Positions 45-4,553 of a stretch of 4,553 nucleotides of DNA are shown here, piece by piece; the stretch's first letter is position 1; every line of letters starts with the position of its first letter. The stretch is from a virus (lineage: Duplodnaviria; Heunggongvirae; Uroviricota; Caudoviricetes): the IMG/VR virus record IMGVR_UViG_2671180770_000005; one strand, 5' to 3'. The notes under the pieces were generated by a model, which saw nothing but the letters and a program-made list of their open reading frames with translations, was not told where the DNA came from and did not search any database. Made by a program: the position numbers and the translations under genes.

Positions 45-66
45 TCAGGCCACCGCGGTGGCCTGA
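45..66. repeat. 22-bp perfect palindrome TCAGGCCACCGCGGTGGCCTGA in the D-E intergenic spacer (potential GC-rich RNA hairpin, ~9-bp stem with CGCG loop)
   Basis: Read directly from the sequence: positions 45..66 are identical to their reverse complement. It sits 7 nt downstream of the D stop codon (76..74) and upstream of the putative E ribosome-binding site. Confidence 0.6.
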
Positions 67-73
67 TAACGTG

Positions 74-421
74 TTACGGCAGCGCCGCATGACTCAGGGC
101 ACTGCCGGCAAAGGCATTTGCCTTTTTGTGTTCATCCACACTTTCAGGCCAGCGGATTGCCTCCGTCGCAAAGGTCCCCGACTTGTAATAGGTCAGTACC
201 GTCTCTGTGCCTTCAAGCGGCAGTACCAGTATGCCAACTGCACTACCGGCTTTCTGTCCGTCCCAGACCACCAGTTTCCCGGTAGCTTCATCCAGCATCA
301 GGGGCGTCAGTGCCGGTGTTGCCGAGGAAATCCCGCTGCTGCCTGTGGCGGTATGAGCCGGATCATTACCGGCAAAAATACGTACTTCCGCACGCTGTTC
401 AGTGATGGTTTTCGTCACCAT
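74..421 (-). CDS. D: Head decoration protein (lambda gpD-like), 115 aa
   Basis: ORF-track translation MVTKTITEQRAEVRIFAGNDPAHTATG...TPLMLD...KLVVWDG...AVGIL...YKSGTF...AFAG matches recalled lambda gpD motifs (SDPAHTAT, TPLMLD, KLVAWDG, FYKSGTF, AFAGTA). ATG at 421..419; position immediately downstream of C as in lambda. Confidence 0.9.
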   Translation of the reverse strand: MVTKTITEQRAEVRIFAGNDPAHTATGSSGISSATPALTPLMLDEATGKLVVWDGQKAGSAVGILVLPLEGTETVLTYYKSGTFATEAIRWPESVDEHKKANAFAGSALSHAALP

Positions 422-457: not shown

Positions 458-1060
458 TCATGGCATGGCCATGAGCATTTTCACGTCCGCATCACCGTCT
501 GCTGACGTCTGTGGCACGCCACCCCGCACCGCTGCCGGTGAATGATTCGCCATGAAATGTTCAAACAGGGCTGTTGTGGATGCAGAGACCGGTTCGGCCT
601 TACCTGATCCCGCAGCCAGCACAGCCCGGGCGTTCTCCACGGTCATTCCCGGGCAGGCCGCCAGTTTTTCAGCCTGCGCTTCTGCCCCTTTTGCCTCATC
701 CAGGGCCATGATCTGATCACGAAGTGAGGGCCCGGCATCCGCCAGTGGTGCAGCCGCCAGGATCGGGCGGGCTTTTTCCACCGTCATCTCCGGCATCGCC
801 GCCAGCGTTGCCGCCAGTTGTTCACGACCTTTCGCTTCTTCACACGCCATAATGCGATCGGCTTCACTCTGCGCGGATGCCACCGGCTGCTGCGGTGCCG
901 CCGCGGCCAGAATCGCCCGGGCCTGTTCAACGCTCATGCCCTGTTGTCCTGCCAGCATCGTGGCAAGCTGTTCACGTCCTTTCGCTTCCTGGCATGTCAG
1001 GATCCCCATCACTCGCTGGTTCTCCTGCGCGGCGGCTTCCGTTGCAGTTAATTGCGGCAT
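458..1060 (-). CDS. nu3: Nested in-frame scaffolding protein (lambda Nu3-like), ~200 aa, translated from an internal start within C
   Basis: Internal ATG at 1060..1058 (Met292 of the C ORF) is preceded on the minus strand by AGAGGAGG-CACT-ATG, a strong Shine-Dalgarno embedded in the codons for R-G-G-T. In lambda, Nu3 is the in-frame C-terminal portion of gene C. The local sequence (GGTMPQLTATE) parallels lambda (SGGRMTKETQ) as recalled. Confidence 0.5.
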   Translation of the reverse strand: MPQLTATEAAAQENQRVMGILTCQEAKGREQLATMLAGQQGMSVEQARAILAAAAPQQPVASAQSEADRIMACEEAKGREQLAATLAAMPEMTVEKARPILAAAPLADAGPSLRDQIMALDEAKGAEAQAEKLAACPGMTVENARAVLAAGSGKAEPVSASTTALFEHFMANHSPAAVRGGVPQTSADGDADVKMLMAMP

Positions 1061-1933
1061 AGTGCCTCCTCTGACATTACTGTTCAGCGCCGTGGCCATC
1101 ACACTGATGGCATCCGACGCATTGATTAATTCATCCGCCAGCCCGGCCTCAATGCCGGACTGACCTTCAAAAACAGCGGCCTCTGTTCCCGTGACTGCAT
1201 CAACAGACAGACCGGTAAACATCGCCACTTTTTCGGCAAACATCCGGCGCGCCGCATCAATCCGCTGCTGCATGTCCTGGCGAACCTCTGCCGGCAACGC
1301 TTCAAACTGATTGCCATCCACCTTGTGCGCCCCTGAGTAAATCAGCGTGATATCCACACCGGCCTGCGCCAGATGACCGGCATAGCTGACATGGCTCATC
1401 ATCACGCCAATGGAACCGATACGGGATGTCTGGGTAACCAGCCGTCGGGAGCAGGCCGACGCCAGCAGCATGGCCGCAGAACAGGCCGTGTCATTACACA
1501 GTGCCCAGACCGGCTTCTGCTGCCGGAGGCGGTAAATCATGTCAGCGCAGTCAAACGCGCCGGCGGCCTGCCCGCCCGGACTGTCAATGTCCAGCAGTAT
1601 GCCCCGCACCTGGCTATCTGCCATTGCCTGCTGAAGACAGGCGACAATGCCGTCATAGCCAGTCATTCCGGAAAATGGCCGCATCCCCCCCAGCCGGTGC
1701 ACCAGCGTGCCGGTCACCGGCAGTACCGCAATACCGTTCACCACCCGGTAAACACGGGCCGGTCGTTTACCTCCGGCCATGTACTCGTCCGTTTCAGCCA
1801 GCATAGGTACCGAAAGACTTGCTGCCCCCATCTCGCGCCCGAGCGCGCAAAAGAAAACCCGCGCATAGGCGGGCTCCAGAAGCAGCGGTTCATTGAATGC
1901 TGCGGCAATAATGTGTGAAAGATTACGTCTCAC
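458..1933 (-). CDS. C: Prohead protease / scaffold protein (lambda gpC-like, S49/ClpP-type serine peptidase domain followed by a Nu3-like scaffold region), 491 aa, GTG start
   Basis: N-terminal ~280 aa resemble recalled lambda gpC (AFNEPLLLEPAYARVFF, GYDGIVACLQQA, GILLDIDSPGG, AGAFDCADMI, KPVWAL, RLVTQTSRIGSIGVMM, ITLIYSGAHKVDGN, TEAAVF, AGLADELIN). The C-terminal part carries a Nu3-like module. The ORF is in-frame with a stop 12 codons upstream of the GTG, so GTG at 1933..1931 is the only plausible start. Confidence 0.9.
   Translation of the reverse strand: MRRNLSHIIAAAFNEPLLLEPAYARVFFCALGREMGAASLSVPMLAETDEYMAGGKRPARVYRVVNGIAVLPVTGTLVHRLGGMRPFSGMTGYDGIVACLQQAMADSQVRGILLDIDSPGGQAAGAFDCADMIYRLRQQKPVWALCNDTACSAAMLLASACSRRLVTQTSRIGSIGVMMSHVSYAGHLAQAGVDITLIYSGAHKVDGNQFEALPAEVRQDMQQRIDAARRMFAEKVAMFTGLSVDAVTGTEAAVFEGQSGIEAGLADELINASDAISVMATALNSNVRGGTMPQLTATEAAAQENQRVMGILTCQEAKGREQLATMLAGQQGMSVEQARAILAAAAPQQPVASAQSEADRIMACEEAKGREQLAATLAAMPEMTVEKARPILAAAPLADAGPSLRDQIMALDEAKGAEAQAEKLAACPGMTVENARAVLAAGSGKAEPVSASTTALFEHFMANHSPAAVRGGVPQTSADGDADVKMLMAMP
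611..1015 (-). repeat. Three tandem degenerate repeats (period ~141-159 nt) inside the C/Nu3 coding region, each encoding a ~40-aa module (IMxxxEAKGxE...LA...PGMTVExARxILAA)
   Basis: Protein level: C ORF residues ~307-346, ~360-396 and ~406-441 align with each other. DNA level: near-identical core TTCACG(A/T)CCTTTCGCTTC at ~971-990 and ~821-840; the third copy (~611-718) is more diverged. Confidence 0.7.
1065..1072 (-). promoter_or_regulatory. Internal Shine-Dalgarno (AGAGGAGG) for the nested Nu3-like start
   Basis: Minus-strand AGAGGAGG lies 4-7 nt upstream of the in-frame ATG at 1060..1058. It is the strongest SD-like element inside the C reading frame that I could see. Confidence 0.5.
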
Positions 1934-3515
1934 GTGGTGTTGTCTCCTCTTCCGGCCTGCGACTCTCCGCTATCTGCTGCTGATACGCCTGCGCTATCCA
2001 CACCGGACGTGAGAGTCCGGCTTTTTCCCGCTCTGCAGATTCCCTGACCTGCTGGCGGAAAATGTCCTGATAATCCTCGCCCATCAGCGCCAGCTCTTTC
2101 TCATACGTGCTCAGTCCGGCCTCAATGCGCATCACTGATTCCTGAACCTCCTTGAGCCCGTCAATGGCCATTCTTCCGGCTCCAATCCACTCAGCCCGTG
2201 ACCAGGCTGATCGCGCCTGATAAAAATCAAAACGTGCCCGTGGCGGACGAATAATCCCCCGAAGAAGTGCCTCTTCCAGCCAGCAGGAAAACATCTGCGT
2301 GGCCAGCCGGGACGCAATAAATTTTCGCCGCCCCATAAAATAGCGCCACGACTCATTGGCGGATGCGCGGGCACTTGAATAACTGACCTTCGAGTAATCA
2401 CGGGACAACTGTTCGTAGGAAACGCCAAGACCGGCGGCGATATACCGCAGCAGCGCCTGTTCAAGCGCCGAAAATCCATTGTCTGAATCCTGCGCGGTCT
2501 GAAGTTTCAGATCATCACCGGGGAAAAGGTGCGGAATTTTGACACCGCCCAGCGTCACGCTATTCGTGTCATACCAGGTGGAGAACTTATCCAGAATATT
2601 AATAAGCGGATTATCCTTCTGCCCCTGCGGCGCACCGGCGATATATTCAAAGGCCTTTTCGGTATCAAGGTCACTTTCAATCGTCGCTGCATACATCGCC
2701 TTCACTATGGCCGACTGAAGCTGTGTTGCCTGCAGGGAATCGAGCATCTTCAGCCGTTCCATTACGCTGTAAAACTGATTGGCCCCACGGGTCTGCCCGT
2801 CCTCCACCGGCTCGAAAATATGCAGCATGGCCGGACGCCCGGTGGGAAGTTCACGCGGGATCCGTTCCCATCGTCCACTCCCGGAGAACGGAAAATCATC
2901 CTCACAGATATGGTACGCAACGGCACGACCATATCGATCGACCTCCACACCGGCCCGCAGAAAACGGTTCCCCATACCGTGTCCTGGCGTGTCCACCCGT
3001 TTCGGACTCACGGCTTTAAAACGCGTACGAAACAGTTGCGTGCTCTCCGTATCCCAGACCGGCTGCACAAAGATTTCGCCGTTAAACGCATGAACGCCCA
3101 CACCTTCACGAATAAATTCCGTAAACGTGCGTTTCTCTTCCACGTCGATCTCGCCAGACATCCCTTCGGCGTATTCCGACCAGGCCGCCTCCACCTCATC
3201 GACAAAACTTTTTGCCGCAGTCTCCCGCATCCCCAGCCAGCGCCAGTTCGGACGATAGCTGATCAGAAACATATGCCCGACAATATGATCCTTATGCAGG
3301 GCCACCGCATTGGCCGCTATCCCGTTATTGCGCACCAGATCATCTGCCCGGGCATTCCCCAGACGCAACGCAGGCAGCAGGGCTGCATCGGCACTCTGCG
3401 CCGGTGGCAACCACTCCGCCATTTGCCCGCCAAATCCTGCGCCGCCCCCGTTGTAGCTGAGACTCTCACGAAGCGGAACGCCGTTCACATCAATCAGGAC
3501 AGGCGTTCGTTTCAT
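1923..3515 (-). CDS. B: Portal protein (lambda gpB-like), 530 aa
   Basis: ORF-track translation matches recalled lambda gpB along its length (DAALLP, GNARADDLVRNNG, SPKR, IPRELP, HIFEPVEDGQTRGANQFYSVME, LQSAIVKAMYAATIES, PGDDLKLQTAQDSDNG, LLRYIAAGLGVSYEQLSR, SARASANESW, GRMAIDGLKEVQESVMRIEAGLSTYEKE). ATG at 3515..3513 overlaps the W stop (ATGA). Confidence 0.95.
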   Translation of the reverse strand: MKRTPVLIDVNGVPLRESLSYNGGGAGFGGQMAEWLPPAQSADAALLPALRLGNARADDLVRNNGIAANAVALHKDHIVGHMFLISYRPNWRWLGMRETAAKSFVDEVEAAWSEYAEGMSGEIDVEEKRTFTEFIREGVGVHAFNGEIFVQPVWDTESTQLFRTRFKAVSPKRVDTPGHGMGNRFLRAGVEVDRYGRAVAYHICEDDFPFSGSGRWERIPRELPTGRPAMLHIFEPVEDGQTRGANQFYSVMERLKMLDSLQATQLQSAIVKAMYAATIESDLDTEKAFEYIAGAPQGQKDNPLINILDKFSTWYDTNSVTLGGVKIPHLFPGDDLKLQTAQDSDNGFSALEQALLRYIAAGLGVSYEQLSRDYSKVSYSSARASANESWRYFMGRRKFIASRLATQMFSCWLEEALLRGIIRPPRARFDFYQARSAWSRAEWIGAGRMAIDGLKEVQESVMRIEAGLSTYEKELALMGEDYQDIFRQQVRESAEREKAGLSRPVWIAQAYQQQIAESRRPEEETTPRET

Positions 3516-3718
3516 AACCTCACTCCCAGCGGACGACGGCGACGCCGGGTTGTCCCCAGTACCGACTCCGCATCATTGATCGCCCGGTTAAGCTCATCCA
3601 GAGAAGCCGCCGTATATTCAATTCTGCGACCATCTTTCTGGACAGACACCACCCGTTTACCGGTTAATAAATCAAGGCGCGCCTGACGTAGCGCCTGTAG
3701 TTCAGCGACTGTAACCAT
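3512..3718 (-). CDS. W: Head completion / head-tail joining protein (lambda gpW-like), 68 aa
   Basis: 68 aa, the same length as lambda gpW. LLTGKRVVSVQKDGRRIEYTAASLDEL resembles recalled lambda W ([27 protein letters not shown]). Strong SD (GGAGGAG) 5 nt upstream of ATG 3718..3716. Lies between terminase and portal as in lambda. Confidence 0.85.
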   Translation of the reverse strand: MVTVAELQALRQARLDLLTGKRVVSVQKDGRRIEYTAASLDELNRAINDAESVLGTTRRRRRPLGVRL

Positions 3719-4553
3719 TCACTCCTCCGGACAGCTTCGCTGCCAGTTCTTTAAGGGTTGGCCGGGTCGTCTCTTCTTCCCGGGATTTTGCTAGTACAGC
3801 CAGATCAAGCTGCCAGCGTTGCACGGACACACGTAATGCCGCGTAGGCATACACCAGGCAGTCCAGCGCTTCGTTACGCCGCTTTTTGTTATCCCACAGC
3901 AGACGCATCTTTCCTTTTTCCCACTTCTCCACAAGCTCTTCCGCGACCAGTTGCTGCGCCTCTGTCTGCGAAAAAATCTCCGGATCATCAGGAAAACGGA
4001 TGGCATACGACGTGGCTTCATCCGCAGGCGTGGGATCGGCTTTCATACGGGCATAGAGAATTTCTTTTGCGGTGTCCGTCCCCACTTCACACAGATACAC
4101 GCCCCGCTGATTGCGGGTTTTCGGCATGGTGATCACCGGCTTGCCATAGACAGATGCGCCTTTTACCGGCAGCACCCGGAAAACACCGTGTTTTTTTGAC
4201 CTCTGATAGACAATTTCACCATCGATCCCCCCGGTGTCCCAGCAGACACGGGAAATGGTCATTTCGGTTCCGTCTGCATGGCAGTATTTTTTGTTGATCG
4301 CCGCATCCACACGTAACAGCGTCTCTTCCTCATCGGGACGGCCCATAATGATGATTTTATCCACCAGAAAAGCTTCCTCTCCCGGTGCCCATCCCCAGAC
4401 ATACATCTCAAAACGGTTTCGCTGCGAGTCAATGCCCGCCGTCAGATAAACCACCCGGGCAGGTACCGCCGCCGTGTAATGCACGACCTTATCCATCAGT
4501 ACCTGGTGATCGAGTTTTTCGCCCACGGCTTCTTCCCAGGTCTCGCCCAGCGT
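3702..4553 (-). CDS. A: Terminase large subunit (lambda gpA-like), C-terminal ~283 codons; 5' portion of the gene lies beyond the window end
   Basis: ORF-track protein (GEKLDHQVLMDKVVHYTAAVPARVVYLTAGIDSQ...CWDTGGID...KHGVFRV...KGASVYGKP...GTDTAKE...TEAQQL...KKRRNEALDC...RWQLDL) closely matches the recalled lambda gpA C-terminal region. The frame stays open through 4527..4553 (TLGETWEEA, as in lambda), so the track start at 4526 is an internal GTG/Val codon, not the true start. Confidence 0.92.
   Translation of the reverse strand, partial: TLGETWEEAVGEKLDHQVLMDKVVHYTAAVPARVVYLTAGIDSQRNRFEMYVWGWAPGEEAFLVDKIIIMGRPDEEETLLRVDAAINKKYCHADGTEMTISRVCWDTGGIDGEIVYQRSKKHGVFRVLPVKGASVYGKPVITMPKTRNQRGVYLCEVGTDTAKEILYARMKADPTPADEATSYAIRFPDDPEIFSQTEAQQLVAEELVEKWEKGKMRLLWDNKKRRNEALDCLVYAYAALRVSVQRWQLDLAVLAKSREEETTRPTLKELAAKLSGGVNGYSR

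Follow-up and report, generated by a model that had tools for sequence, protein, structure and literature searches.

A probable internal translation start for a nested scaffolding-protein gene within the head maturation protease gene of a phage 21-like Escherichia coli prophage

Judging from sequence and homology, a short purine-rich element that lies within the head maturation protease gene of an E. coli prophage of the phage 21 type very probably serves as the site where translation of a nested scaffolding-protein gene begins. The window, meaning the whole 4,553-bp stretch analyzed, is an E. coli contig with a lambdoid head operon; end to end, it shares 96–97% identity with phage 21 and relatives. 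Pfam matches follow one another on the minus strand as GpA_nuclease, gpW, Phage_portal_2, Peptidase_S49, and HDPD. The gene order (terminase large subunit, W, portal, C, and D, with the start of E at window position 16) is that of a lambda-type head operon.

Both the internal ribosome-binding site (RBS) and the nested scaffold gene are already known, being annotated in phage 21 records. M81255.1 lists a nested gene 6 of 603 nt with an RBS feature "GAGGA" at the homologous site, and OL657228.1 gives a nested 200-aa "scaffolding protein" with RBS "AGGAG", also at the homologous site. The phage 21 annotations in M81255.1 are labelled "putative", and phage 21 gp6 (200 aa) appears in databases as "head-tail preconnector gp6". 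Genes 5 and 6 of phage 21 match the window in having a ~97% identical locus, the same nested frame, a 200-aa product, and three Tri boxes; the 63 nt compared around the internal start are identical. The two differ in the full-length protein, which has 501 aa in phage 21 and 491 in the window, where QQQVQFDAPG (10 residues) of an N-terminal variable region is missing. A few substitutions separate gp6 from the nested product of the window, whose exact sequence is absent from the protein collection.

The protease gene and its probable internal start site

The features of the full-length gene are as follows (all on the minus strand).

458..1933, minus strand: gene C/5 in full, coding for a 491-aa S49 protease–scaffold fusion from a GTG start (ORF; exact protein match in databases)
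1943..1948, minus strand: RBS of the full-length gene, AGGAGA, 9 nt before the GTG at 1931–1933 (mapped from the RBS annotation of M81255.1)
1085..1735, minus strand: S49 (SppA/ClpP-fold) protease domain, residues ~67–283 (Pfam, structures, NCBIfam)
458..1060, minus strand: nested ORF, 200 aa plus stop, gp6/Nu3-type scaffolding protein (same sequence as the last 200 residues of the 491-aa protein)
890..993, minus strand: Tri1 box; the scaffold part has three such tandem repeats, which have diverged, and this is the first (mapped via the repeat_region of M81255.1)
743..853, minus strand: Tri2 box (same mapping)
599..712, minus strand: Tri3 box (same mapping)

The exact 491-aa protein is deposited as CTT79131.1/WP_054496487.1, [quoted passage not shown]. 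Its GTG start overlaps the end of the portal gene by 11 nt, and its RBS pairs with the 16S 3′ end at −9.1 kcal/mol, weaker than the internal site. Pfam Peptidase_S49 covers residues 136–283 (E = 1.4e-34), SppA structures match residues 67–280, and NCBIfam SppA_dom matches residues 68–281. Ser152 aligns with residue 166 of lambda C, the Ser of a conserved CSA motif, and lambda C Ser166 is said to have been identified as the active-site serine by Medina et al. 2010.

Searched against PHROG, the nested ORF matched phrog_8399 ("head scaffolding protein", E = 1.2e-34) and phrog_8940 (E = 3e-30), with phrog_53 also among the matches; it had no Pfam or NCBIfam family match. The ENxR..IL..EAKGRE motif of the scaffold part aligns with lambda. 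The Tri boxes are mutually 41–52% identical at the amino-acid level and went undetected at the DNA level by Tandem Repeats Finder; M81255.1 labels its Tri repeat_region "function unknown".

Between these two parts, 9–12 residues past the end of the S49 domain, lies Met292, with the following elements.

1065..1072, minus strand: Shine–Dalgarno element AGAGGAGG, codons R288-G289-G290, core AGGAGG at 1065–1070 (direct reading)
1061..1064, minus strand: 4-nt spacer CACT between AGGAGG and ATG (same spacing in relatives)
1058..1060, minus strand: internal in-frame ATG, Met292 of gene C/5, predicted scaffold initiation codon (alignment column 323)

The reverse complement of window positions 1058–1072 is AGAGGAGGCACTATG, read on the minus strand as 1072..1058; its codons AGA GGA GGC ACT ATG correspond to R288 G289 G290 T291 M292 of the ORF at 458..1933. 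An earlier sequence-only reading had described a Shine–Dalgarno and ATG at 1058–1072. Direct reading bears out the sequence but not the strand, as plus coordinates had been attached to a minus-strand sequence. The same reading called the Shine–Dalgarno strong and placed it directly upstream of in-frame Met292, which agrees with the pairing energies. At −12.0 kcal/mol, the Met292 site pairs best with the 16S 3′ end among all 46 in-frame ATG/GTG/TTG codons, and it surpasses six other gene starts in the window (−5.6 to −9.5 kcal/mol), these being assigned by homology with phage 21. The prediction, in that reading, of a nested scaffold product of ~200 aa in the C frame likewise holds for the sequence: Met292 to the stop spans exactly 200 aa, and phage 21 records annotate the homologous putative product.

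For AGGAGG by itself, the window holds about as many copies as chance predicts (2 observed versus 1.91 expected). The composite AGGAGG-N4-ATG has an expectation of 0.03 in the window and was present in 6 of 200 shuffles, a figure for which coding strand and reading frame were not yet required. A single occurrence of the composite is not the source of significance; homology and conservation are. The minus strand has one further AGGAGG, inside the portal gene and followed 11 and 14 nt downstream by in-frame GTG and ATG codons. It was rejected as a start on the ground that it is unconserved in lambda, and it serves as a negative control: lambda encodes the identical K-E-V as AAA GAA GTT.

The mRNA around the internal start is unremarkable in accessibility. 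Partition-function calculations on 100-nt segments for every AUG on the strand gave a probability of being unpaired of 0.39, the 43rd percentile of same-strand AUGs, which is evidence neither for nor against an internal start. Among functional spacings, the 4 nt between Shine–Dalgarno and ATG are on the short side, which counts against initiation here. An Rfam search of the window returned no RNA family match. On the opposite strand, just past the internal ATG, OL657228.1 annotates a CII-binding-site pattern; TTGYN6TTGY occurs twice in the window against 0.84 expected, and we took this instance as chance.

Conservation of the predicted start across homologs

The chance-level frequency of AGGAGG in the window, together with the clearly incidental copy in the portal gene, gives some footing to a reading without internal initiation, in which a Gly-Gly linker incidentally creates the Shine–Dalgarno-like string and any scaffold-only form would come from (auto)proteolytic cleavage of the fusion protein. 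Precedents point the same way: a single fused protease–scaffold gene is reported for P2 (PMC8508860), and herpesvirus pUL26 frees its scaffold part by self-cleavage (PMC4498786). Comparison across homologs makes this reading very unlikely.

Among 17 diverse homologs, the Met at the protease–scaffold boundary has the best anti-Shine–Dalgarno pairing of all in-frame starts in 11. The conservation of Shine–Dalgarno and ATG that the sequence-only reading proposed as a check is found. Counted by lineage, this holds in 9 of 15 (crude binomial P = 2.8e-8), which argues against cleavage as the sole source of the short form. In the other 6 of the 17, which are distant homologs, the boundary Met lacks the best Shine–Dalgarno, and the boundary Met selected in Aeromonas phiA034 has none.

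Nucleotides are kept where the amino acids differ, an outcome that a Gly-Gly linker does not account for. The pattern xxA/T GGA GGx xxx ATG is maintained in the enteric lineages except Providencia, while the residue before GG varies among R, T, S, L, and I; in Providencia, RGGT is replaced by KEDK, yet GAGG is retained. The claim that the RGG residues are jointly constrained by protein and translation signal is therefore sustained for the purine-rich nucleotides and fails for the Arg. AGA makes up 4% of Arg codons in the window genes, and GGA 12–24% of Gly codons in the compared C genes. The constant 4-nt distance to the ATG in enteric lineages other than Providencia also speaks against cleavage. 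The same spacing is seen in lambda (GCGA), Gifsy-1, and Trabulsiella, and 4 nt likewise follow GGAGG in phi80, N15, and the N15-like Enterobacter phage MStein-2023a. Within a coding sequence, the site is a clean instance of nucleotide-level constraint on a translation signal, in which amino acids drift and the purine string stays. Within the phage 21-like group, AGGAGGCACTATG is invariant among 61 distinct sequences, with 10 of the 30 positions immediately upstream variable; the invariance of 13–15 nt is not significant alone, since 11% of 15-nt windows contain no variable site.

Annotated relatives weigh against cleavage as well. Beyond phage 21, the N15 and phi80 records both describe gene 6 as an "internal in-frame translational start within gene 5", and the Met concerned is the aligned one, preceded by GGAGGA-ACT. 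These two systems differ from the window in having a nested product of 137 aa with a single box and a protease of the lambda-like, not the phage 21-like, sequence type.

A further arrangement that counts against cleavage is that of Sinorhizobium phage phi2LM21, whose scaffold is encoded by its own gene at the same boundary. This phage has the same S49 protease (p33) and the same gene neighborhood, but its protease ORF stops at the boundary and scaffold p34 follows 24 nt downstream with its own Shine–Dalgarno, an unfused state. The 184-aa ORF resembles the nested products of Ppu-503 (E = 1.5e-8) and lambda (E = 5e-6) in a search of a five-sequence database, and BLASTP detected no similarity between p34 and the nested product of the window.

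The location of the site between the protease domain and the scaffold would also suit a signal acting mainly in full-length translation, as a translational pause site or as a cue for domain folding. Such a role leaves unexplained both the conserved ATG at fixed spacing and the separate-gene arrangement of phi2LM21, and as the main function we regard it as extremely improbable. Pausing could coexist with initiation.

Herpesvirus UL26/UL26.5 is a comparable case outside phages: the genes overlap in frame, their identical 3′ ends encode the scaffold, and the unique 5′ part of the longer gene encodes the protease (PMC4498786). In contrast to internal initiation at a Shine–Dalgarno on a polycistronic mRNA, the short UL26.5 product comes from its own promoter and transcript. 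The herpesvirus protease fold (assemblin) is unrelated to S49, making this an analogy and not a homology.

Comparison with lambda C/Nu3

Met292 shares alignment column 323 with the gene 6 starts of phage 21, N15, and phi80 and with Met309 of lambda C. The lambda system is alike in its S49 protease, its in-frame nested scaffold with a common C-terminus, and its order of portal, C, D, and E, and differs in that amino-acid identity across the protease part is ~54%. The ATG at lambda position 5342 (C Met309), aligned to Met292, carries the same AGGAGG-N4-ATG and would open a product of 131 aa. Purified gpNu3 is said to have been subjected to N-terminal analysis that, with the phrase "C-terminal third of C", points to this 131-aa product.

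RefSeq annotates lambda nu3 differently, as a CDS at 5132..5737 that starts at C Met239, encodes 201 aa, and is not aligned with Met292. The sequence-only reading had likened the arrangement to that established for lambda C/Nu3. The nested type of gene is indeed shared, whereas the RefSeq nu3 start at 5132 does not correspond to Met292, the aligned site being the ATG at 5342. Against the single Tri-like box of lambda, the window has three, which accounts for the greater length of the window's nested product, and the match in length (~200 aa) between this product and RefSeq lambda nu3 is a coincidence.

The RefSeq annotation raises the prospect that the nested product of the window starts elsewhere, at the position of lambda C Met239, at Met279, or at GTG308/ATG309, the last of these having a moderate upstream AGGAG (−7.4 kcal/mol). 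The column of lambda Met239 is occupied by Ile in the window as well as in phi80, the N15-like MStein-2023a, Trabulsiella, and Providencia; in lambda itself, Met239 has a weak Shine–Dalgarno (−6.9) and falls within the S49 domain. Met279 has no Shine–Dalgarno, and the pairing at GTG308/ATG309 is ~4.6 kcal/mol weaker than at Met292. Any of these starts is, in our estimate, highly implausible beside Met292. For lambda, the alignment suggests that the RefSeq nu3 start appears 70 codons too early and that the conserved start is 5342; the reference record appears to set nu3 at a non-conserved Met instead of the conserved Shine–Dalgarno and ATG.

The overlap of C and Nu3 in lambda was established experimentally (Shaw & Murialdo 1980, as cited in PMC8508860). 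Lambda Nu3 is a scaffolding protein that interacts with C, and C may degrade it (PMC3224144).

Proposed expression and annotation in databases

We infer that two polypeptides are made from the gene on this contig, with a ratio and assembly roles as follows. Initiation at the upstream GTG (1933) would yield the 491-aa S49 protease–scaffold fusion; the moderate Shine–Dalgarno there and the overlap with the portal stop suggest coupling to portal translation. Ribosomes bound at the strong AGGAGG (1065–1070) would start at the AUG 4 nt downstream, Met292, and produce the 200-aa protein. If lambda biology is a guide, the scaffold-only product would be needed abundantly to drive coat-protein polymerization, and the rarer full-length form would co-assemble with it owing to their shared C-terminal sequence. 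In that way, again following lambda, the procapsid may come to enclose a small number of protease molecules, which would later degrade the scaffold. By analogy, we infer that the short product would be the procapsid scaffold removed by the protease.

For the window itself these results have little import, the nested gene and its RBS being annotated in phage 21 and following the example of lambda C/Nu3, and their practical value is in annotation. We consider it somewhat probable that a Shine–Dalgarno and ATG at the boundary are a general feature of S49 protease–scaffold fusions beyond lambda, phage 21, and N15, that they are largely unannotated, and that the RefSeq lambda nu3 start is too early. 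Three records of Casjensviridae, those of Salmonella phage SeWh-1, Burkholderia AH2, and Rhodobacter RcSalem, were examined: only one CDS is called, although the boundary Met has the best Shine–Dalgarno; the unclassified Vibrio phage HY01 likewise has a single CDS called and a boundary Met with the best Shine–Dalgarno of the gene. NCBI PGAP left the nested gene uncalled in the single E. coli prophage copy inspected and reported only "S49 family peptidase", so that a likely essential head-assembly protein goes unlisted. The module was found in 2047 of 5426 complete E. coli genomes.

Gene content and the predicted internal start

Every gene in the window is encoded on the minus strand. The gene carrying the internal start, designated gene C, specifies an S49 protease fused to a scaffold.

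Genes of the window (Pfam, assignment from a Pfam match)
3702..4553, minus: large terminase, lambda-type, C-terminal endonuclease part (Pfam)
3512..3718, minus: gpW (Pfam)
1923..3515, minus: portal, lambda-family (Pfam)
458..1933, minus: gene C, 491-aa protein with a Peptidase_S49 domain, GTG start (Pfam)
74..421, minus: decoration protein, lambda gpD-type (Pfam)
start at 16, minus: major capsid gene, first five codons only

Phage 21 and its relatives match the window at 96-97% identity over its full length, and the head module was found in 2,047 of 5,426 complete E. coli genomes, in up to six places per genome. The exact 491-aa protein has a single database record (CTT79131.1 / WP_054496487.1, E. 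coli), named at source [quoted passage not shown]. Relative to phage 21, gene C carries an in-frame 30-nt deletion (window 1804/1805, minus; codons 43/44) that removes QQQVQFDAPG after "SVP". None of the 80 IMG/VR relatives shares the deletion, nor do phage 21 or the best-matching E. coli genomes. The N-terminal segment concerned is poorly conserved, and the deletion may be either a rare variant there or an artefact that arose when a prophage repeat collapsed during assembly.

The reverse complement of window 1058-1072, AGAGGAGGCACTATG, reads in frame as R288 G289 G290 T291 M292, with 200 residues from Met292 to the stop. The codons, Met292, and ~200-aa length described in the sequence-only reading match the sequence; the strand is minus. 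The internal AUG lies 4 nt 3' of the Shine-Dalgarno (SD) and 9-12 residues past the end of the protease domain. AGGAGG alone occurs at chance level (2 found versus 1.9 expected in the window); the composite AGGAGG-N4-ATG is expected 0.03 times. The predicted pairing of the internal SD with the 16S rRNA 3' end is -12.0 kcal/mol, the best among the 46 in-frame ATG/GTG/TTG codons of gene C and stronger than at the starts of W, portal, C, D, and E (-5.6 to -9.5). The GTG start of gene C and the portal stop overlap by 11 nt. The SD serving that GTG, placed 9 nt upstream, is moderate and much weaker than the one before Met292. Predicted local RNA accessibility at the internal start gave no signal for or against initiation.

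The second AGGAGG, and the only other one on the minus strand, belongs to a perfect AAGGAGGT in the portal gene (window 2130-2152, minus); a GTG lies 11 nt and an ATG 14 nt downstream, both in frame (portal codon 462). This match, which served as a negative control, was rejected as a start and is incidental, because its codons encode K-E-V and lambda spells the identical residues AAA GAA GTT.

Conservation across homologs

We aligned 17 homologs: the window, phage 21, lambda, Trabulsiella and Providencia prophages, Gifsy-1, phi80, an N15-like Enterobacter phage, two Vibrio phages, Rhodobacter RcSalem, Burkholderia AH2, Aeromonas phiA034, the chi-like Salmonella phage SeWh-1, Pectobacterium MA12, Proteus P-07, and Pseudomonas Ppu-503. 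The variable linker that joins the S49 domain to the conserved ENxR..IL..EAxGRE motif contains a Met in all 17. This boundary Met has the strongest anti-SD pairing among in-frame starts in 11 of the 17 genes, or, counted by lineage, in 9 of 15 (mean chance 0.058 per gene; crude binomial P 2.8e-8).

Codons at the boundary start
AGA GGA GGC ACx ATG: window, phage 21, Trabulsiella
ACA GGA GGC ACT ATG: Gifsy-1 and three phage 21-like variants
TCA GGA GGG CGA ATG: lambda
CTT or ATT GGA GGA ACT ATG: phi80 and N15

Conservation of the SD and ATG, proposed as a check in the sequence-only reading, is borne out in the enteric lineages except Providencia: the purine string, 4-nt spacing, and ATG are kept, and the residue preceding Gly-Gly varies. 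In Providencia, RGGTM is replaced by KEDKM, but GAGG is retained. AGA makes up 4% of the Arg codons in the window's genes. Across 61 distinct phage 21-like sequences, AGGAGGCACTATG is invariant, and 10 of the 30 positions just before it vary.

In Sinorhizobium phage phi2LM21 (extract L098), a stop codon falls at the boundary, separating a 302-aa protease ORF (1498-2406) from a 184-aa ORF (2431-2985, annotated hypothetical) that follows a 24-nt spacer and has its own GGAG SD. The 184-aa product is similar to the nested proteins of Ppu-503 and lambda and has no detectable similarity to that of the window. We read this two-gene arrangement, from sequence, as an unfused form of this module.

Were the scaffold generated by proteolysis only, the SD would be incidental; this is contradicted by conservation of nucleotides over protein sequence at the SD, the fixed spacing of the ATG, and the unfused phi2LM21 arrangement. 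A competing reading, that the SD-like string is a pause signal, leaves the conserved ATG unexplained. The comparisons support the internal-start interpretation and a predicted nested scaffold product. The earlier proposal that this product is Nu3-like agrees with the aligned gene 6 starts of phage 21, N15, and phi80 and with the conserved SD-ATG.

Annotation in relatives and the lambda nu3 start

A nested scaffold start within the protease gene is textbook knowledge for lambda. The nested gene is already known, being annotated in phage 21, N15, and phi80. The phage 21 head gene operon record (M81255.1, "Bacteriophage 21 head gene operon") gives gene 5 as 1506 nt and, nested within it, a 603-nt gene 6 that encodes 200 aa. 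It also marks "GAGGA", seven bases 5' of the ATG, as a putative ribosome-binding site and lists three "Tri box" repeats labelled "function unknown". The 2021-era complete phage 21 genome (OL657228.1) pairs a "capsid protease/scaffolding protein" CDS with a "scaffolding protein" CDS, and all 63 nt compared between phage 21 and the window around the internal start are identical. The N15 gene 6 record notes an [quoted passage not shown], and the gene 6 starts of phi80 and N15 share one alignment column with Met292. The remaining value is in annotation: for E. coli O103:H2 12009 (NC_013353.1; extract L104 2921-4426), PGAP calls an "S49 family peptidase" alone and omits the nested scaffold gene, and Casjensviridae and other distant phages, recorded with a single CDS, also show this boundary SD-ATG.

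The lambda RefSeq record (NC_001416; extract L004) places nu3 at 5132..5737 (L004 2633 for 5132), a 201-aa product starting at C Met239. That Met lies within the S49 protease domain, has weak anti-SD pairing (-6.9), and is Ile in the window, phi80, the N15-like phage, Trabulsiella, and Providencia. The lambda partner of Met292 is C Met309 (ATG 5342; L004 2843), which has AGGAGG and a 4-nt spacer upstream, yields 131 aa, and aligns with the annotated gene 6 starts of phage 21, N15, and phi80; the start that the N15 annotators chose "by similarity with lambda" is likewise the Met309 equivalent. Both lambda lengths exist as database entries, and PHROGs holds a 131-position "head scaffolding protein" family alongside a 201-position "capsid assembly protein" family. 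Sequence evidence clearly favours 5342 over 5132, and the RefSeq nu3 CDS is probably 70 codons too long, with a start that looks misplaced. Nothing supports a scaffold start at a different in-frame codon of the window, where the lambda RefSeq position is not Met and GTG308/ATG309 pair much more weakly than Met292.

The ~200-aa length that the earlier reading likened to lambda is thus a coincidence: the window's product owes its length to three Tri boxes, against one in lambda. The three copies (window 599-993, minus, inside the nested ORF) are diverged tandem repeats of ~35-45 aa with 41-52% amino-acid identity and the motif ENxRxxxIL..EAKGRE..A..LA....M(S/T)VE.A..IL; no Pfam or NCBIfam family covers the region. 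phi80 and N15 also have one copy each, and a single recognisable copy occurs in Casjensviridae, Rhodobacter, and Vibrio phages.

Proposed function and neighboring elements

By analogy with lambda, internal initiation at Met292 would supply abundant scaffold, and the rarer protease-scaffold fusion would enter the procapsid by co-assembling with it through their common C-terminal sequence. For lambda, the overlap of C and Nu3 is established (Shaw & Murialdo 1980, as cited in PMC8508860), and the scaffolding protein, Nu3, interacts with C, which may degrade it (PMC3224144). Herpesvirus UL26/UL26.5 follows the same logic but uses a separate transcript rather than the internal SD proposed here (PMC4498786).

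Antisense to gene C are two TTGYN6TTGY matches (window 1042-1055 and 808-821, plus), both homologous to sites annotated as CII-binding in phage 21 (OL657228.1). They are probably chance matches, since 0.84 are expected from shuffles of the window and no convincing -10 element follows either. Between D/shp and the major capsid gene lies a 9-bp GC-rich hairpin (window 45-66, minus), TCAGGCCACC GCGG TGGCCTGA, then CTGATTTCTG, which is terminator-like in sequence. At the matching intergenic position, N15 has an annotated "putative rho-independent transcription terminator", and phi80 has an annotated promoter and transcription start. A possible role for the hairpin is in setting the ratio of D to E expression or in stabilising the mRNA.
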